From a virus: a stretch of 64,000 nucleotides of DNA. Position 1 is the first letter of the stretch. Every line of letters begins with the position of its first letter. The stretch spans positions 13,098 to 77,097 of the IMG/VR virus record IMGVR_UViG_3300028558_000024, one strand, 5' to 3'. Below are positions 12,712 through 53,072 of this stretch, piece after piece. The notes beneath the pieces were generated by a model. It was given only the letters and a program-made list of their open reading frames with translations. It ran no database searches and had not been told where the DNA came from. A program made the position numbers and the translations under genes.

Positions 12712-13149
12712 ATGAAAAAGGTACTCACGCTGGCTCTGGTTGCTGCGGTTTCCATGAATGCATTTACAATGGCGCCGGCTGAAGCCTTTCCTTCCTTCAA
12801 AAAAGTCGCAAAAGGCATTTTTCGCGCAGTTGAATTGCCTTTGATGGTTGGACTTGGTGGCGTTCTCGGAATAACTGTCGGCGCAATTGCAGGCGGCGGC
12901 ATGGGCATAACTGCTGGTGCAATGGCCTGGTATGACGTCGGCGAGCAGGATAAACAGCTTGAGGCTGCCAAAGAAAACGCTGCGAAGATGTTGGAAGATC
13001 TCAAAAATCATGTTCCAACCCCAGAAGAGCAAAAGCGCAGCGACGAAATGGATGCGCTTATGAAAGAAGGCGAGAGATTGTTGAAGGAATTCGACACTCT
13101 CAACGCAAAACCCTCCGCTCTCCCCGATCCCGTAGAGGTAAAACCCTAA
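12712..13149 (+). CDS. signal-peptide, glycine-zipper membrane protein with coiled coil
   Basis: MKKVLTLALVAAV...APAEA; GxxxG repeats. Confidence 0.6.
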   Translation: MKKVLTLALVAAVSMNAFTMAPAEAFPSFKKVAKGIFRAVELPLMVGLGGVLGITVGAIAGGGMGITAGAMAWYDVGEQDKQLEAAKENAAKMLEDLKNHVPTPEEQKRSDEMDALMKEGERLLKEFDTLNAKPSALPDPVEVKP

Positions 13150-15422: not shown

Positions 15423-16694
15423 TTGAAGAAAGAAGTATTGGGCGAACATCTAGCAATCAAGCCACGTTTAGTGAGTGAGCTTATTCCCTATGCCAGAAAC
15501 GCGAAAAATCACCCCGAGGAACAAATTTCCAAAATTGCTGCCAGTATAAAAGAATTTGGCTTCAATAATCCCGTTGCTGTCGATGGTGATAACGGCATAA
15601 TCGCCGGCCATGGCCGTGTTATGGCAGCGCAGAAACTTGGACTTAAAACTGTTCCGACCGTTGAACTGTCGCACTTATCCGAGACGCAAAAACGCGCATA
15701 TATCATCGCTGATAATAAGACCGCAGAATCAGACTGGCTGGGCGAAATGCTCTCTCTGGAAATGAAAGAACTCGCTCTTGAAGACGATTTTGACATGTCT
15801 CTTTTAGGATTCGACAAAGACGAATTAGGCGAATTCCTCAACTACAAAACCTCTGAATTGCCGGCAGGTGGATTGACTGATGAAGACGAAGAGCCGCCAC
15901 CGCCTGAAGATCCAGTTACAAAACTGGGGGATGTTTGGATTCTCGGAAATCACCGTCTAATGTGTGGTGATTCAACGCAAATCGATCAGGTTGAAGTTTT
16001 GCTCGACGGCGAAAAGGCTGACATCACCTTTACAGATCCGCCCTATGGCGTTGCATATACCGGAGGCGCCAAGAAGCGAGAAGCATTAGCCAACGATGAG
16101 CGGGGCACCGTTATTTATGACGAAGTGCTCCCAGTGATAGCTTTGGTAACGAAGAAGGGCGCACCACTTTACCTTTGGTATGCTGATGTGGTATTAGCAG
16201 CCGCAGCCGCAGCCGCAGCCGCAGCCGGTTACGAAATTAAGGCTCAAATTGCTTGGGTAAAAAATAATGCTCAATTCGTCACGTCGGCGCATTACAAGGG
16301 CAAGCACGAGCTTTGTATGTATGCTCACCAGAAAGGCGAGCGGGCTCCTTGGTATGGTCCGAACAATGAAGTCACCGTTTGGAATGTTGATCGCGCAAAC
16401 AAGAACGAATATCACCCGACGCAAAAGCCTGTTGCCCTTTCAGAAAAGGCATTAACCAATTCTTCGAAGACTGGCGATATTGTCTTAGATCTTTTTGGCG
16501 GATCTGGCTCAACAATGATCGGAGCTGAAAAGATTGGCCGTCATGCTCGCCTTATGGAATTGCAGCCAACCTATTGCGACGTCATCGTCAAACGATGGCA
16601 AGAATTCACCGGCAAACAAGCCACCCTCGAACTTGATGGATTGACGTTTAATCAGTACTCGAAAGAGAGAAAGTCTTTGTCTAAAAAGGCTTAA
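15423..16694 (+). CDS. ParB-N domain fused to N4/N6 DNA methyltransferase (beta class)
   Basis: IAGHGR (ParB-N); TDPPY; HPTQKP; DLFGGSGST; typical position upstream of terS. Confidence 0.93.
   Translation: MKKEVLGEHLAIKPRLVSELIPYARNAKNHPEEQISKIAASIKEFGFNNPVAVDGDNGIIAGHGRVMAAQKLGLKTVPTVELSHLSETQKRAYIIADNKTAESDWLGEMLSLEMKELALEDDFDMSLLGFDKDELGEFLNYKTSELPAGGLTDEDEEPPPPEDPVTKLGDVWILGNHRLMCGDSTQIDQVEVLLDGEKADITFTDPPYGVAYTGGAKKREALANDERGTVIYDEVLPVIALVTKKGAPLYLWYADVVLAAAAAAAAAAGYEIKAQIAWVKNNAQFVTSAHYKGKHELCMYAHQKGERAPWYGPNNEVTVWNVDRANKNEYHPTQKPVALSEKALTNSSKTGDIVLDLFGGSGSTMIGAEKIGRHARLMELQPTYCDVIVKRWQEFTGKQATLELDGLTFNQYSKERKSLSKKA
16197..16226 (+). repeat. (GCAGCC)5 in-frame microsatellite encoding Ala10
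   Basis: direct reading of sequence. Confidence 0.9.
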
Positions 16695-16897: not shown

Positions 16898-17473
16898 ATG
16901 CCGAAGAAGAAACTCCCTGCAAAAACATTGGAAGGCACGATTGCTCGAGAGTCGAAGAAATCGTCCGACGTCTTTAATCCAGAGACTCTAACCGCGATCC
17001 AAGTCCTTGCCGCGTGCTGTTTCACGGACAAGGAAATTGCTTTAGAGCTTGGAATGAGCGTTCAAAAGCTGGCCGAGAACAAGAAAAAATATCAAGCGTT
17101 TGCCGAAGCCGTTGAACTTGGTCGAATGAAGGCAAAGAAAAAATGGGGTAAAGCCTTACTTCGAAAAATCGATGAAGGCGATATGCAGGCGATCAAATTC
17201 TACGGAACTCACGTTTTGAAGATGTCGGCGCCAAGGGCGGACGAAGACGCCGGGAAAGGAAGCACGACAAATATTGTCGTTTTCTCCCCTGAAGACATGC
17301 AAAAAGACGCTTGGCAAAAAATGGTTGAAGAAGCGAAGAAGCGCGCAACTGAAGCAGAGCCACAGCCAGAAGAAGAAAAGCCGGAATGGATGCAAGGCGA
17401 CAACGTCATTGATCTGCCGGCAATAACTTTAAACCCAGCATCAAGGGAGATTCCGCAAAGTGGAACTTCCTAA
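16898..17473 (+). CDS. terS: terminase small subunit (putative)
   Basis: HTH-like TDKEIALELG; F.EA.E.GR..AK; overlaps terL start. Confidence 0.7.
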   Translation: MPKKKLPAKTLEGTIARESKKSSDVFNPETLTAIQVLAACCFTDKEIALELGMSVQKLAENKKKYQAFAEAVELGRMKAKKKWGKALLRKIDEGDMQAIKFYGTHVLKMSAPRADEDAGKGSTTNIVVFSPEDMQKDAWQKMVEEAKKRATEAEPQPEEEKPEWMQGDNVIDLPAITLNPASREIPQSGTS

Positions 17474-19952
17474 GATCGATTCATCAAATGTGGCGCCATT
17501 TGAAGTAAAGCCGCAGCCAGGCCCGCAACTGTTTTTAGTTACCTGTCCCTACCAGGACATCTTTTTTGGCGGCCAGCGTGGTGGCGGGAAAGCTCAAACG
17601 CTTGACTCTGTGGTGCATACGCCGTTTGGACCGAAACGAATGGGCGACATAAAGTTGGGCGATCAGGTCTGCAATCCCGAGGGTGGAATCGCCAATGTAA
17701 TCGCAATTCATCCTCAACCAAAGCAGCAAATCTACAAAGTAACTATGGCTGACGGTGCGACGACTCGCGTCACCGGTGGGCACATTTGGCTTTCGCGGAT
17801 TGTCGGGCAGAAACTCAAAGCGAAAAGGCGATGGATGCACGTTTCTCGTTATTTGTATGAGGGAAGAGATTATCTCAACTGGAAGCTCTTCACGACGCTT
17901 CAACTTAAGGAATGGATCGCCAAAGGACCAGCGAGCCACAACAGCAGACTGCCAGTCTTGCCTTTGCCACAACCGTTGACCTATACCGTGAGTGGACGGA
18001 ACCCCGCCAAAATTGATCCTTACATTCTTGGTTTGATCATTGGAGATGGGCATTGCGGTGACACCGGTATTGGCATCACTTCTGCCGATAAAGAGATTGG
18101 AGACATGCTACTCCAACTGGGCTTTGTTGAAAACCGGAAGCCCGGAAATGCAGCATCAACCTATTTAGCTCGAGGGGAAATATTTCAAACCTTAAGAACA
18201 GCCCTTCAGCAGCTCGATCTGTACGGCTGTAAATCCAATAGCAAATTCATCCCCCGCCAGTTTCTCTACGGTTCAATTGAAAACAGGTGGGAGTTACTTC
18301 GTGGGTTGATGGATTCGGACGGTTCGGCAACTCCAGAGGGCAAGTTGAATTACTCGTCGGTGAGCAAACGCTTAGCCGACGAAGTCCGCACTTTGATTGA
18401 AGGACTCGGTGGCTGGGCGACCATATGGGAGAAGCCAGGAAAATATAGAAACGAAGAAGGCGAAATAGTTGAATGCCAGATTTCTTACAACCTTTACATT
18501 AAGCTTCAAGACCACAGTCAAGCATTTCGGCTTAAACGAAAGAAGGAGAGAGCGGCCAAGTATTCATTCAATGGTGGCGCTGATCAATGGCGCAAAATTG
18601 TCTCCATTGAAGAAGACGGCTTTGAAGAAGCTCAGTGCATAACAGTCGATCATCCGAACGGGCTTTACCTCACAGATAATTGCATTGTCACCCACAACAG
18701 TTTCGCAGTTCTTCTCGACTTTATTTATCATGCTGCAAAATACGGCGAACACGCTGTCGGCTTGATTGTTCGTGAATCGTATAAAGAGCTTCAGGATTTC
18801 AATGAAAAGAAAGCCATGCCAATTCTGTTTCGGCTTGGCTGGGATTGGAACGTTGGACGACAGACATGGTATGCGCCCAACGGGGCCACTCTTCGCATGG
18901 GGCACATGGCGACTCAAAAGGACGCAAATAAGCTCCTTGGCGCCGAGCTAACCTGGTTTGCTGTTGAAGAAATTGGTAATTTTCCAAACGACAACATCGA
19001 CAAGCCGGAGCCCGGATCTAACGTCGGACTCGACATGATTCGCGGATCGATGAGATCGGCTCACGGTGTACCTGTTCGCTTCCTTTGTACTGGAAATCCA
19101 GGCGGAATTGGGCATCGCTGGATCAAAGCGCGGTACGTTGATCCGGCTCCGCCGATGACACCTTTTAAAGACGAAGAAACAGGTCAGTGGCGCGTTTTCA
19201 TACCTTCTTCAACAAAAGATAATCCGATTTTGATGGAAAGCGATCCCGAGTACGTGGATCGTTTGCGTGCCGTCGGATCGAAAGCCCTGCAAAAGGCATG
19301 GATCGAAGGCGACTGGGAAATTTCACTCAAAGGCGAGATTTTTGAACGCCCCTGGTTCGGCTGGTACGACTGGAATCCGGAAGACGCGATTATGCCTCGC
19401 ATTGGCATTGGCTCCAAGTGTCCGCCGATTCATGGCCGATTTTCATCATGGGATACGGGCTGCAAAGTCGAAGAGGTTCATTCTAAGACAGCCGGACTTA
19501 CCTGGGCGACTTCCGTCAATGAAATTTTCATTCTCGATATGTTTAACAAGCGAGTTCAATTTCCTGTACTCGTCGATACAGTCAAGATGTCTTCTCGAAA
19601 ATGGAGACCAGAAGCAATTTGGGTCGAGGAAAGATCTTCCGGCATTCAATTGGTTCAAACATTGCGCACTGGAACACAACTCCCAATCAAGCCAGTTCAG
19701 GTCACCCGTGACAAAGAGAGCCGAGCTCATGCCGTCAGCGCCGGATTGACGACAGGAAAAGTACTTTTGCCCTCCAAGTGTCCATGGGCTTACGATTTGT
19801 TGGAAGAGCTTTGCGCATATCCACAAAAAGGCGAAAGCGATTTAGTCGACGCTTTCACTTTGGGAATGTCTCAGATTTCTTATTCCGAAGAAAGAATCAA
19901 GAAATTCAGGAATAGCGCAGGATACCGAAACCGCTCAATTTACGGAAGATAG
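17460..19952 (+). CDS. terL: terminase large subunit containing an intein
   Basis: GGQRGGGK/S Walker A split by intein; VEE Walker B; TGNPGG; SWD nuclease motif; DLVDA. Confidence 0.93.
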   Translation: MELPKIDSSNVAPFEVKPQPGPQLFLVTCPYQDIFFGGQRGGGKAQTLDSVVHTPFGPKRMGDIKLGDQVCNPEGGIANVIAIHPQPKQQIYKVTMADGATTRVTGGHIWLSRIVGQKLKAKRRWMHVSRYLYEGRDYLNWKLFTTLQLKEWIAKGPASHNSRLPVLPLPQPLTYTVSGRNPAKIDPYILGLIIGDGHCGDTGIGITSADKEIGDMLLQLGFVENRKPGNAASTYLARGEIFQTLRTALQQLDLYGCKSNSKFIPRQFLYGSIENRWELLRGLMDSDGSATPEGKLNYSSVSKRLADEVRTLIEGLGGWATIWEKPGKYRNEEGEIVECQISYNLYIKLQDHSQAFRLKRKKERAAKYSFNGGADQWRKIVSIEEDGFEEAQCITVDHPNGLYLTDNCIVTHNSFAVLLDFIYHAAKYGEHAVGLIVRESYKELQDFNEKKAMPILFRLGWDWNVGRQTWYAPNGATLRMGHMATQKDANKLLGAELTWFAVEEIGNFPNDNIDKPEPGSNVGLDMIRGSMRSAHGVPVRFLCTGNPGGIGHRWIKARYVDPAPPMTPFKDEETGQWRVFIPSSTKDNPILMESDPEYVDRLRAVGSKALQKAWIEGDWEISLKGEIFERPWFGWYDWNPEDAIMPRIGIGSKCPPIHGRFSSWDTGCKVEEVHSKTAGLTWATSVNEIFILDMFNKRVQFPVLVDTVKMSSRKWRPEAIWVEERSSGIQLVQTLRTGTQLPIKPVQVTRDKESRAHAVSAGLTTGKVLLPSKCPWAYDLLEELCAYPQKGESDLVDAFTLGMSQISYSEERIKKFRNSAGYRNRSIYGR
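17592..18698 (+). mobile_element. class 3 intein with LAGLIDADG homing endonuclease (369 aa)
   Basis: starts Ala (AQTLDS), ends VTHN/S; TGGHIW, AQCITV, VTHN give the WCT triad; LGLIIGDG and LRGLMDSDG motifs. Confidence 0.9.
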
Positions 19953-50155: not shown

Positions 50156-50962
50156 GTGAAATACAGAAGTTGCATCCGATACCCCGGAGGCAAACAACGG
50201 CACTTAAAATACCTAGTCCCTTTGATGCCCAAAGGAGTCTTTGAGATGCGTGACGTTCTGTGCGGTGGAGCTTCGGTTTCACTAGCAGCGGCAAAAGAAG
50301 GCATCGCCAAACGTTACTGGCTCAACGACCTTTTCTATCCGGTTTTCAATTTCTGGCATATCGTGAGCAGACTCGGGCAAGAGCTTGTGAACGAAGTTTT
50401 CTTCATTCACGAATTGACTGACGAAAAACTGAGGGAAAGAGTCTTAGAAGGCAAAGAAAGACTACTCGCAAACAAGCCATACGACTCACTTCTTATGGCA
50501 ACTGATTTCTTTATCCTCAATCGCTGCAGCTTTTCAGGTTCAACTCTTTGCGGCGGATTGAAAGGAAAGATTCGCGAACGTTTCAACCTAAGCAACATCA
50601 CCCGAATTCTCGATTGCTATGTCGTTATGAAGGATTTCGGATTCACGGGCGTCGACTTTTCAACAGTTATTCAAAAGGGTGGCACGGAATCTTTCCTGTT
50701 TTGCGATCCGCCATATATCTCCGCTTCCAAGCTTTACGGCAATGGTGGTGATCTACACGACGACTTCGATCACCTTAAACTAGCGGAGTTGCTTCACGAA
50801 ACCGATCACAAATTCATGTTGACCTATGACGATCATTATCTGATTCGGCGCTGGTATGGCGGATTCAACATCCGCGAACTTGGCGTCACAAACTCAATGG
50901 ACAACTGCGGAAAGAGCGGGAAGCCGAAGAGAGTAAAGGAATTGGTAATTACGAATTACTGA
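50156..50962 (+). CDS. D12-class N6-adenine DNA methyltransferase
   Basis: RYPGGK; D..CGGASV; ND; NR.SFSG; DPPY; E..ITNY. Confidence 0.92.
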   Translation: MKYRSCIRYPGGKQRHLKYLVPLMPKGVFEMRDVLCGGASVSLAAAKEGIAKRYWLNDLFYPVFNFWHIVSRLGQELVNEVFFIHELTDEKLRERVLEGKERLLANKPYDSLLMATDFFILNRCSFSGSTLCGGLKGKIRERFNLSNITRILDCYVVMKDFGFTGVDFSTVIQKGGTESFLFCDPPYISASKLYGNGGDLHDDFDHLKLAELLHETDHKFMLTYDDHYLIRRWYGGFNIRELGVTNSMDNCGKSGKPKRVKELVITNY

Positions 50963-51007
50963 TGGAACGAACGATTGTTAGAAACCCAAACTGAAGGAAA
51001 AACTAAA

Positions 51008-51757
51008 ATGTCAATAAAACAACTAAACCAATTGATCGCTCTGGAAAAAGGCGTAAAGCAACGGACATACAAAGAGATTGACGCAGCATATGACTTGCTG
51101 CGAAAACCGGAAGTACTCAATGGATTTGCAAAGGAATACCAGCCGCTTGAGGAAAACGGACAAAGCTTGCCGTCCGAATCGAAGAAAGTTCAGATAACGT
51201 CCGGTGAACTCTTTGAAATTATCAAAGATCAGATGATCGAATACCTCAATATTGAAACCAGCAAGGATTTTACGAATGCTTCTGCAACCGGTGACATCAT
51301 CGCCAATGGTGTCGAGATCCAAAAGGGCGTTCCGGTTACAACATTGCTGGCATTGGAGAAACAACTTCTTGATCTGAGAACCAGTATTGAAAAAGCTGTA
51401 ACGCTTGATCCTTCGCAAGACTGGAAGTTCGACAAAGCTACTGGCTGCCAACGAACAGAACCGGTAAGAAAAGCTCGCACCAACAAGGTTCCAAAGGTAA
51501 TTACGTTGGCACCCGCTACAGACAAGCACCCCGCCCAAACACAGCTCCTTCAAGAAGATGTGATCGCAGGCTATTGGGTGCAAACGGAAATTTCTGGAGC
51601 ACTTGAAGCACCGACAAAACGCAACTACATTGAAAGAGTGAATGATCTTCTTGATGCAGTGAAAGCCGCACGGGAACAAGCAAACAGCACGGAAATTAAA
51701 AGGTTCGAATTCGCTGAGAAGATGTTGAATTACGTCTTCGCTGGTGATAAAGTCTAA
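51008..51757 (+). CDS. uncharacterised helical protein (LNQLIALEKGVK type) directly upstream of a tRNA-mimic RNA
   Basis: GAAGGA RBS; motifs Y.P..E.G..LP.E.K.VQ, VP...LL.LEKQL, A.ATDKHPAQ, SGA, AVK.ARE.AN. Confidence 0.8.
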   Translation: MSIKQLNQLIALEKGVKQRTYKEIDAAYDLLRKPEVLNGFAKEYQPLEENGQSLPSESKKVQITSGELFEIIKDQMIEYLNIETSKDFTNASATGDIIANGVEIQKGVPVTTLLALEKQLLDLRTSIEKAVTLDPSQDWKFDKATGCQRTEPVRKARTNKVPKVITLAPATDKHPAQTQLLQEDVIAGYWVQTEISGALEAPTKRNYIERVNDLLDAVKAAREQANSTEIKRFEFAEKMLNYVFAGDKV

Positions 51758-51759
51758 GT

Positions 51760-52187
51760 ACGGAAACGAAGTTCAAACTTAAATTCAAGATGAAAGCGAA
51801 GTCGGTTTGATGCAGGTGCGAATCCTGCTCGGGGCTCCAATATGCCCCGGTAGCCCAACAGTCGAGGCGACCGACGAGCAAAAAGAAAATCAACTTATTT
51901 CCTAAGTTGATTGCTGAAAGCAAGGTGTCTCAAGCACCACTGCAAATCACTGGAAGATTTCGGTTCAAATCCGAACTCGGGCGCCATGCCTGGGTAGCTT
52001 AATGGCAGAGCATCCTTTCTTAGACCTAAAGCAGTGGTTTAAACGTCGTCACCACGCGAAGAAAACAGCATAAAAGCATATAGCTCAATAGTAGAGCGAT
52101 TGACTTGTAATCAATTTGTTCTGGGTGCGATTCCCAGTATGCAAAATAAATACCGGGGGCGTCTCAGGCTACGAGGCGCCTCCACCA
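51760..52187 (+). ncRNA. large structured RNA built from tRNA-like modules (boundaries approximate)
   Basis: permuted T-acceptor-D modules at 51801-51875 and 51952-52015; cloverleaf 52076-52142; minihelix-ACCA 52155-52187; enclosing helix 51936-43/52031-38. Confidence 0.75.
52076..52142 (+). tRNA. tRNA-Thr(TGT)-like cloverleaf with 5-bp acceptor stem and no CCA
   Basis: GCATA-TA-GCTC/GAGC D arm, ATTGA-CTTGTAA-TCAAT, CTGGG-TGCGATT-CCCAG, TATGC. Confidence 0.65.
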
Positions 52188-52201
52188 TTTAGTAATTACT
52201 T

Positions 52202-52230
52202 TTGCCATAAACGACTTCACGCGGTAACTT
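52202..52230 (+). promoter_or_regulatory. sigma70-like promoter for downstream tRNA-Met mimic
   Basis: TTGCCA-17 nt-TAACTT, 5 nt before element start. Confidence 0.5.
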
Positions 52231-52235
52231 CTAGT

Positions 52236-52299
52236 CAGCCAAGCGTGGAGGGGCTCAGCCTCATAACCTGAGCCCGAGCGTTCGAATCGTCCTTGGTTG
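52236..52299 (+). ncRNA. D-armless tRNA-Met(CAT)-like RNA
   Basis: CAGCCAAG/CTTGGTTG closing stem; GGGCTCAG/CTGAGCCC stem with CTCATAA loop; TTCGAAT T loop. Confidence 0.55.
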
Positions 52300-52349
52300 T
52301 CGAGAAATCGGGTAGCGGTCCCAGCCGAGCCTGCACCGACTTAGTCAAT

Positions 52350-52390
52350 AAAACACTTCATCGCCTGCACGGGATGAGGTGTTTTTGTTT
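52350..52390 (+). terminator. intrinsic, possibly bidirectional terminator
   Basis: AAAACACTTCATC...GATGAGGTGTTTTTGTTT. Confidence 0.65.
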
Positions 52391-52646
52391 TGCGGCGAAA
52401 AACTTACTTTTGCAATCCTCCTGGGCCCAAAACAAAATCAAATTACCCCCCAAACCGAAAGACGTTATTGCAGGTAAGAGATTTTGAAAACTGAAGTATC
52501 AGGAAAAGTTGTCGAGCATGAATTGACTGCAAAGGTCATCAGAGCAGACGGAACGATTGAGAAGGAAATTCTCGTCGGGTACTTCGGACCACATTTGAGA
52601 AAACACCTTATCTGCATTTGGAATAACCTCTTGAGGGCTATTAAGA

Positions 52647-53072
52647 ATGGCAGACGTACTAACTAACGCCGGACTGGCGATTGTAACCAACCGCATAATC
52701 GGCTCCGGCACGGAACCGAAATATGCCTCATGGGGCACGGCGGCCGGTACTGCTGCTGTCGGCAACACGACTCTCTTTACCGAGGCCATGTCGACTCAAA
52801 ACGACGGCTCCTCGCACAACAACCGAGTATCTGGCACCTCTTCAAGAGTTACAGGATCACAGACAAACGACACCTATCAAGTAGTGGCTACCTTGACTGC
52901 TGATGCTGGCAAAACAATCACAAACGCTGGTTTGTTTGACTCTGACGGATTGGCCGCTGACCTCGTGACTGCTCCGGCAGGCGGCAATTTGTTCGTCAAA
53001 TCCGACTTCACCGGCATTGCCTTAAATACCGGCGATGCAATTCAGTTCACCTTCAAGACCCGCTTCAGTTAA
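52647..53072 (+). CDS. tail-fibre/collar-like structural protein
   Basis: LTNAG...GT......T.L..E...I.NAGLFD pattern of fibre N-terminal domains. Confidence 0.6.
   Translation: MADVLTNAGLAIVTNRIIGSGTEPKYASWGTAAGTAAVGNTTLFTEAMSTQNDGSSHNNRVSGTSSRVTGSQTNDTYQVVATLTADAGKTITNAGLFDSDGLAADLVTAPAGGNLFVKSDFTGIALNTGDAIQFTFKTRFS

Follow-up and report, generated by a model that had tools for sequence, protein, structure and literature searches.

The sequence analysed here, referred to as the window, is a 64,000-nucleotide (nt) stretch (positions 13,098 to 77,097) of the 77-kilobase (kb) IMG/VR viral contig IMGVR_UViG_3300028558_000024, which is 68% complete and carries myovirus-type genes for a sheath, baseplate J, and terminase. 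At positions 51936-52038 of the window, an initial annotation made from the letters alone had described a circularly permuted tRNA module nested in a long helix, the second of two such modules. This module was found downstream of a gene of the uncharacterised protein family DUF7873 and immediately ahead of a tRNA-Thr gene. In our view, it is probably the second domain (domain B) of a two-domain non-coding RNA of about 300 nt, arranged on the plus strand as domain A, domain B, and then tRNA-Thr, which acts together with the DUF7873 protein, undergoes cleavage by RNase P, and does not need the Y RNA protein Ro60. The unit comprises the following features:

50975-51757, plus strand: DUF7873 gene (PF25283; Pfam E 1e-80), which ends 45 nt before the modules
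51770-51909, plus strand: domain A (module 1), with a match of 29.6 bits to the Rfam YrlA model, a core match to R1 (our covariance model of domain B), and a fold z-score of -4.0
51910-52070, plus strand: domain B, the full extent of module 2 including its outer helices (R1 match at 51910-52063 plus the outer helix)
52074-52145, plus strand: tRNA-Thr(UGU) gene (ARAGORN; Rfam 56.8 bits), which starts right after domain B
52352-52391, plus strand: intrinsic terminator seen in the fold (11-base-pair (bp) stem, 10-nt loop, T-run)

Module 1 is the sister domain of module 2 within the same intergenic unit. A scan for sigma-70-like promoters over 50900-52700 returned no site, including between DUF7873 and the RNA or tRNA genes, and the unit DUF7873-A-B-tRNA-Thr likely ends at the terminator, which the pattern scanner missed because of its 8-nt loop limit. 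The placement of tRNA-Thr directly after domain B recurs at three related loci (L010, L049, and L004). The CCA is not encoded in tRNA-Thr(UGU) (52074-52150), and both tRNA-mimic loops of the unit carry NCCA. The elements of domain B were read as follows:

51912-51916 (TGCTG) with 52066-52070 (CAGCA), plus strand: outermost helix P0, read by analogy with relatives
51924-51927 (GGTG) with 52050-52053 (CACC), plus strand: helix P1; 7/7 pairs covary, 92% paired
51928-51935, plus strand: internal loop, 5' side, TCTCAAGC; family consensus aUCnA in 99 sequences, with T and C invariant
51936-51943 (ACCACTGC) with 52031-52038 (GCAGTGGT), plus strand: helix P2, 8 bp; 7/7 pairs covary, 94% paired
51952-51954 (GGA) with 52013-52015 (TCC), plus strand: helix P3, the anticodon-stem analogue
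Up to 51958, plus strand: linker AGAT, the 4 nt after the 5' strand of P3 (variable-loop analogue); family consensus AGAY
51959-51975, plus strand: T arm with a 5-bp stem (TTCGG 51959-51963, CCGAA 51971-51975) and the canonical loop TTCAAAT (51964-51970)
51976-51994, plus strand: acceptor hairpin (CTCGGGC 51976-51982, loop GCCAT 51983-51987, GCCTGGG 51988-51994)
51995-51996, plus strand: TA, equivalent to U8-A9
51997-52011, plus strand: D arm (GCTT 51997-52000, loop AATGGCA 52001-52007, GAGC 52008-52011), the stem of which covaries
52012, plus strand: A, the position-26 analogue
52013-52030, plus strand: 3' strand of P3 and then the conserved 3' joining strand, with the family motif AnnUnA immediately before the 3' strand of P2
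52039-52048, plus strand: internal loop, 3' side, TTAAACGTCG; family consensus uuaAaYGY

When module 2 was folded by itself, the minimum-energy structure contained the helices of the initial annotation, and its z-score was modest (-2.3). Each stem of the initial annotation (the T arm, the acceptor hairpin with NCCA in its loop, the D arm, the GGA/TCC closure, and the 8-bp helix) was recovered at its position, whereas the proposed ends were too narrow, the conserved element reaching to about 51910-52070 with the internal loop and the outer helices. The acceptor hairpin consists of 7 bp, including one G-U pair, and its positions were 99% paired, with 7/7 pairs covarying, in the 99 sequences; the loop GCCAT can be parsed as the discriminator G, then CCA, and then a single U. 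The G53-C61 pair of the T arm was invariant (99/99), while the remaining T-stem pairs covaried. All single-stranded motifs of the family were present in the window at the aligned positions (TCTCAAGC, TTAAACGTCG, and ACCTAA). P3 was unusually short in the window, with 3 bp in the family register as against 4-7 bp in relatives, and has an alternative 5-bp register (GGAAG/CTTTC).

Homologous loci were gathered with a DUF7873 profile, which yielded 80 viral loci where a search with the single protein had found only one relative, and 80 bacterial loci were taken from more than 572 matches. The bacterial loci include Nocardia, Nonomuraea, Streptomyces, Myxococcus, Kofleriaceae, and Pyrinomonadaceae, as well as Herpetosiphon and other Chloroflexota, Deinococcales, Planctomycetota, and Abditibacterium. 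A strict pattern scan over 565 kb (T arm, 7-bp self-complementary acceptor hairpin, 2 nt, and D arm) placed the motif almost exclusively 50-400 nt downstream of DUF7873 genes, with very few occurrences elsewhere. In nearly every locus with enough sequence, the modules were paired, about 150 nt apart and on the DUF7873 strand, and modules 1 and 2 of the window are the A and B members of such a pair. By our definition of the family, domain B follows a domain A at a distance of 150-400 nt from the DUF7873 gene, downstream on its strand, and module 2 agrees with this, with the gene ending at 51757, the core of domain A at 51801-51875, and the start of domain B at 51910.

When the B regions of 33 phages were aligned with MAFFT and folded with RNAalifold, five helices emerged (T arm, acceptor, D arm, P2, and P1), with compensatory changes in 29/30 pairs. 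The covariance model R1, built from this alignment, matched the window, itself a member of the seed, with 107.4 bits (E 2e-20, model positions 1-157). Outside the seed, 36 phage and 75 bacterial loci matched at 55-126 bits. A full-length domain B followed DUF7873 in 69 phage loci (55-140 bits) and in 75 of 79 bacterial loci. The scores left a sharp gap: no domain A, Ro60-adjacent RNA, or tRNA exceeded 53 bits, with most of these matches confined to the core, and B domains scored 55-140 bits over the full length. Among the 99 aligned B domains, 96.0% of the pair cells held standard pairs, compared with 59.3% after shuffling of the partners (0/500 shuffles reached the observed value) and 38-44% after sliding by 1-3 columns; this alignment was fitted to R1, and the MAFFT alignment of 33 sequences is the independent check. 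P3 averaged 5.2 bp in 55 relatives, compared with 2.9 bp with shuffled partners.

The case against chance lies in the comparison, namely the position of the motif in the pattern scan and the covariation. The covariation analysis that the initial annotation had called for, together with the pairing controls, bore out its proposal that selection acts on the permuted fold, which does not stem from decay of a tRNA array: compensatory changes occurred in every helix at homologous loci, and such substitutions maintain the fold in phages as well as in several bacterial phyla. Resemblance by chance, or a decayed dimer in which the T arm of one dead tRNA stands beside the D arm of another, might be suggested by the phage tRNA arrays nearby, and Chen et al. 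(PMC4201824) warned of false YrlA hits caused by dimeric tRNAs. We give this explanation practically no credence and regard it as refuted, in that the two acceptor strands pair with each other and do not belong to separate intact tRNAs, all helices covary in 99 phage and bacterial loci, R1 matches both groups of loci, and the position relative to DUF7873 is fixed. At the level of strains, four DNA runs compared over the region differed solely by G>T at 51792 on one low-depth contig, so that no compensatory changes could be used there. A DNA similarity search with 51760-52400 against cultured phages matched nothing but tRNA-Thr.

The consensus of domain B retains the elbow and core of a tRNA (U8, A14, R15, G18, G19, A21, the Y48 analogue, G53-C61, and the loop UUCRA); every nucleotide required for an L-shaped elbow has been kept. 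In its fold, domain B is a tRNA whose anticodon loop is open and whose acceptor end is closed, and both ends of its core run on as an irregular rod formed by P2, the conserved internal loop, P1, and P0. Module 2 was called a tRNA by neither ARAGORN nor the Rfam tRNA model (RF00005), the only call in the window being tRNA-Thr, and a canonical tRNA was consequently rejected, there being no cloverleaf call.

Circularly permuted tRNA genes, for which a review is available (PMC3978253), occur in Cyanidioschyzon merolae, other algae, and archaea, where complete tRNAs are made via a circular intermediate that depends on a bulge-helix-bulge (BHB) motif, and a two-piece, permuted transfer-messenger RNA (tmRNA) occurs in alpha-proteobacteria and cyanobacteria. 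Domain B resembles the former in having its 3' half upstream of its 5' half, with a spacer between the acceptor 3' end and position +1, and the latter in its permuted tRNA-like domain with a segment, excised in tmRNA, between CCA and the 5' acceptor strand. If it were a true gene of either kind, with halves rejoined or assembled into a translating tRNA, the NCCA directly before the 5' acceptor strand, the 7-bp acceptor stem, the canonical T and D arms, and the variable spacer length known from permuted tRNA and tmRNA genes would all be accounted for. However, we hold this to be very improbable, and both gene types were rejected. While permuted tRNA genes restore an anticodon loop, none can be formed here; in this RNA of bacteria and phages, the strands past P3 carry the family motifs into the conserved, covarying helices P2, P1, and P0. 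ARAGORN, which detects permuted tmRNA, found nothing, and the RNA differs from two-piece tmRNA in having no tag frame, no pseudoknots, and no G3-U70 alanine identity, position 3-70 being C-G in module 2. We know of no BHB splicing endonuclease that processes permuted tRNAs in bacteria. The helices found (8 bp, with large asymmetric loops) are unlike a 3-4-3 BHB, no search dedicated to BHB having been made.

Domain A, which precedes domain B, has the same tRNA-like topology with its own stems:

51801-51875, plus strand: tRNA-like core of domain A (R1 44.8 bits, core only)
51812-51828, plus strand: T arm
51829-51850, plus strand: acceptor hairpin with loop TCCAATAT, followed by TA
51853-51868, plus strand: D arm, with the closing helix GTCGGT/ACCGAC

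In the family alignment, the flanking rod strands of domain A align with conserved blocks, and the 3' strand of its rod abuts the outermost helix of domain B. Across 55 A/B pairs, the discriminator was mostly A in domain A and mostly U or G in domain B, positions 8-9 were UG or UA in domain A and UA in domain B, and the D loop was larger in domain A and 7 nt in domain B. The cores of modules 1 and 2 in the window are 56% identical, and A and B constitute two distinct conserved domain types, in keeping with the earlier view that the modules share a topology with different stems and are no recent duplication. Because the two types co-occur in phages and several bacterial phyla, any duplication must be ancient. 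In the 3' flank of domain A (51889-51911, plus strand), there is also a potential 10-bp hairpin (ATCAACTT..AAGTTGAT), each arm of which can instead pair with a near-palindrome in the 5' flank (AAGTTCAAACTT, 51779-51791, plus strand). Relatives carry the same near-palindrome (AAGCTCAAGCTT), and the two pairings may constitute an alternative-structure switch in the rod of domain A.

To our knowledge, Ro60 is the only protein known to partner RNAs of YrlA-like shape. YrlA (Y RNA-like A, Rfam RF02553) is the tRNA-like Y RNA of Ro60 (Chen et al. 2014, PMC4201824), its crystal structure is available (Wang et al. 2018, 10.1101/312249), and its likeness to a circularly permuted tRNA whose acceptor stem is closed has already been described (PMC4201824, 10.1101/312249). 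The order of T arm, closed acceptor stem-loop, D arm, and closure by an anticodon-stem analogue was present in module 2, and domain B and YrlA share the whole series of rod, short anticodon-stem analogue, T arm, loop-closed acceptor stem, D arm, and rod. Furthermore, both RNAs retain the elbow nucleotides, often occur as two RNAs in tandem near tRNA genes, and are found in bacteria and phages. In contrast, the T and D stems are conserved in sequence in YrlA and covary freely here, and the RNA described here is set apart by an acceptor stem of always 7 bp, G1-C72, U-1, frequent NCCA, and a constant neighbour that is DUF7873 and not Ro60.

The Rfam YrlA model, which has a gathering score of 69 bits, did not match module 2 even at E values of up to 10, while module 1 (51787-51899) scored below that threshold, at 29.6 bits, and relatives scored 20-45 bits. 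The Ro60-binding motif on the 5' strand of YrlA, GNCGAAN0-1G (PMC4201824), was likewise not present, since module 2 contains no GNCGAA and 51900-51958 no CGAA at all; the family consensus at this place, aUCnA, shares at most the CGA core. No gene for a TROVE protein (Ro60/Rsr) was found on the 77-kb contig, which is 68% complete, and among the 31 carrier phage genomes that are at least 90% complete, TROVE was present in 6 and absent from 25. Where present, it usually lay more than 10 kb from the DUF7873/RNA locus, and in the five TROVE-positive genomes with placeable YrlA-like matches, it was adjoined by YrlA-like RNAs of its own, without the B-specific features. In these genomes (L086-L090, from G043, G040, G001, G051, and G028), the phage TROVE genes are flanked by two or three such RNAs, the best of which scored 42.9 bits and none of which reached the Rfam gathering score. 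The Rfam YrlA model is therefore too narrow for phage Y RNAs.

A classical Y RNA (YrlA/YrlB) could bind Ro60/Rsr from the unsampled 32% of the phage or from the host, and tether it to an effector such as polynucleotide phosphorylase. The YrlA topology, the sub-threshold YrlA scores of module 1 and its relatives (20-45 bits), the incomplete contig, and the presence of TROVE in 6/31 near-complete carriers, a share that by our own estimate is high for phages, speak for such a role. We nevertheless consider it improbable, given the 25 near-complete carriers without TROVE, the lack of a GNCGAA motif and of a YrlA match in module 2, the fact that TROVE in the five genomes has adjacent RNAs distinct from the DUF7873 pair (at most 53 bits on the B model), and the perfect co-occurrence with DUF7873 instead among 101 Mycobacteriales genomes. 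We infer that the system does not depend on Ro60. The element fails to join YrlA by Rfam score, Ro60 motif, and Ro60 linkage, and we classify it as a new Ro60-independent variant within the YrlA-like class of tRNA mimics.

Between the RNA and DUF7873 there is a one-to-one co-occurrence. Exactly one strong copy of domain B, at the DUF7873 locus, was found in 29 of 30 phage genomes, and among the 101 Mycobacteriales genomes, the same 6 carried both domain B and DUF7873, and the other 95 neither (naive probability of the overlap ~8e-10, kinship ignored). No conserved neighbour other than DUF7873 was found in the phage loci or in the bacterial loci, and same-strand tRNA clusters surround more than half of the phage loci, where, as in the window, the first nucleotides of a tRNA frequently follow shortly after domain B. 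In one of the 6 Mycobacteriales genomes (G102:C9:34220-34674), an intact domain B of 106 bits stands beside a DUF7873 remnant with just 35 matching residues and a TAG stop, the RNA having been retained after decay of the protein gene.

The companion protein has 245 residues, and its AlphaFold model reached a mean predicted local distance difference test score (pLDDT) of 90. Foldseek searches against PDB and BFVD gave nothing convincing, the best being weak matches (3kdq, PUR-alpha-like), a DUF7873 profile had no match among PDB sequences, PHROGs contained no match, and the Atlas returned only the family itself. The literature search found no paper mentioning DUF7873 and none on the RNA/DUF7873 cassette. 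The start codon of DUF7873 may lie 11-19 codons further in, since the database forms are shorter.

Based on the genomic association, we infer that DUF7873 and the RNA may form an RNA-protein unit. The protein would bind the RNA, most likely at the conserved internal loop (aUCnA opposite uuaAaYGY), while the two tRNA-like heads would be displayed to enzymes that recognise tRNA. Located immediately behind the DUF7873 stop codon, not separated from it by a promoter-like site, and almost always adjacent on the same strand, the RNA might instead be a cis-acting element in the 3' untranslated region of the DUF7873 mRNA that serves stability or autoregulation. This seems hardly probable, as three Herpetosiphon genomes have no domain B within about 1.5 kb downstream of DUF7873, and some 300 nt with two tRNA-like domains far exceed the known stabilisers of this kind. 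Moreover, in Herpetosiphon aurantiacus DSM 785 (L173, L174), domains A and B follow each other 1.8 Mb away from the single DUF7873 gene, between unrelated genes for a glycosyltransferase and a CLC channel, which indicates that A and B are one RNA gene in its own right, able to act in trans. The next gene downstream of DUF7873 in H. aurantiacus encodes an ADP-ribosylglycohydrolase.

It is also conceivable that the RNA antagonises DUF7873, as a tRNA-shaped decoy or an antitoxin similar to those of type III systems, or that it is a phage decoy for host enzymes attacking acceptor ends. A self-contained two-gene module with patchy, mobile-element-like spread (6/101 Mycobacteriales, many phages, and several phyla), the intact RNA of 106 bits beside the stop-bearing DUF7873 remnant, and the location in phage tRNA clusters would agree with this, and DUF7873, in which no enzyme fold is recognisable, may be a toxin. 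Nevertheless, we rate an antagonist as unlikely. Toxicity is without support, the protein-then-RNA order without repeats is unlike known type III systems, and the elaborate conserved rods and two distinct heads exceed the needs of a simple decoy; the claim of an RNA-protein interaction, moreover, is shared with the explanation that we prefer.

This preferred explanation, an RNA that acts with DUF7873, includes processing of the acceptor loops. Throughout the family, the acceptor stem is always 7 bp long and stands on a 5-bp T stem, and among the 55 paired B domains, G1-C72 was found in 52 and U-1 in 40. NCCA followed straight after the 3' acceptor strand in 28/55 A loops and 30/55 B loops, compared with 1.6% expected by chance. 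The acceptor loop measured 5-89 nt in the paired set and about 118 nt in one relative (L028); apart from NCCA, its length varies between 1 nt and over 100 nt, and this part frequently folds into a hairpin of its own. Such variable length is expected of an excised spacer, and the 7-bp stem, G1-C72, U-1, and NCCA in 55% of the loops together suggest, by analogy, that RNase P cleaves the acceptor loop. In the window, the predicted cut would fall between U-1 and G+1 (51987/51988), after which the upstream piece would be trimmed to the encoded CCA, and the product would be an RNA of several base-paired pieces whose ends resemble those of a tRNA; RNase P processing of the adjacent tRNA would set the 3' end of the RNA. 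There is a precedent in Mycobacterium smegmatis, where YrlA, the acceptor stem of which is also 7 bp long, is cleaved by RNase P in vitro and is present in vivo in the form of two halves, with a CCA tail (PMC4201824; 10.1101/312249). The likeness extends to the acceptor stem and, for the processing predicted here, to the +1 cut and the CCA 3' end, while the differences are that in M. smegmatis the CA is a post-cleavage addition and Rsr binds the RNA, whereas here CCA is usually encoded in the loop and there is no Rsr.

Several observations weigh against an RNA of this kind that works with DUF7873 and is cut by RNase P. The 5-nt loop of the window leaves a single leader nucleotide for RNase P and may be a poor substrate, CCA is missing from about 45% of the loops, and the relation between NCCA in the loop and CCA-encoding neighbouring tRNA genes was a weak trend (17/22 vs 8/14). 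DUF7873 is not basic (isoelectric point 5.5 here, family median 6.2), and the searches with it gave no recognisable RNA-binding fold and no structural relative. The co-occurrence counts are not phylogenetically independent. Finally, no public RNA run was listed with the window sequence, and the transcript, its ends, its cleavage, and its CCA status are predictions.

Further elements were observed around the unit. Right after tRNA-Thr and within the same transcription unit, there is a strong GC-rich 11-bp hairpin (52155-52183, plus strand). It is followed at 52229-52345 (plus strand) by a degenerate tRNA-like element, called by neither ARAGORN nor Rfam, with acceptor-like strands (CAGCCAA/TTGGTTG), a weak T arm with the loop TTCGAAT, no proper D arm, and an 8-bp stem whose 9-nt loop contains CTCATAA, resembling a CAU anticodon. 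Two phage DNA methyltransferases are encoded at 50156-50962 and 15423-16694 (plus strand), of which the D12-class Dam-like enzyme sits just upstream of the DUF7873 gene, and the second is a ParB-N-fused N6/N4 methylase. The large terminase gene (17460-19952, plus strand) contains an intein-like LAGLIDADG/homing-endonuclease insertion.

The putative biological role of the RNA with DUF7873 most likely lies in conflicts between phage and host over tRNA or RNA damage. A more far-reaching version of this explanation, which we put forward tentatively, is that the double tRNA-mimic RNA joins DUF7873 in a ribonucleoprotein independent of Ro60, DUF7873 being a second, unrelated family that uses YrlA-like RNAs. 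RNase P would open both loops to give a three-piece RNA with two genuine CCA 3' ends that differ in identity (the discriminator being A in domain A and U or G in domain B). Enzymes that act on tRNA could recognise these ends and perhaps charge or modify them, and phages would carry the unit in their tRNA clusters so that the tRNA pool is protected or repaired during infection.

The tRNA-shaped Y RNAs have so far been understood solely as partners of Ro60, and we know of no factor that reads their tRNA-like head. The RNA described here shares the YrlA architecture, yet it has two heads and tRNA-grade acceptor stems carrying CCA, its constant companion is an uncharacterised protein, and it has spread through phage tRNA clusters and several bacterial phyla. 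For annotation, it accounts for a "broken tRNA" signal that recurs in phage genomes. A functional pairing would represent a new system of RNA and protein based on tRNA mimicry and would assign a function to DUF7873, and Myxococcus xanthus, Streptomyces, Nocardia, and Herpetosiphon would offer tractable hosts in which to learn what the tRNA mimicry is for.

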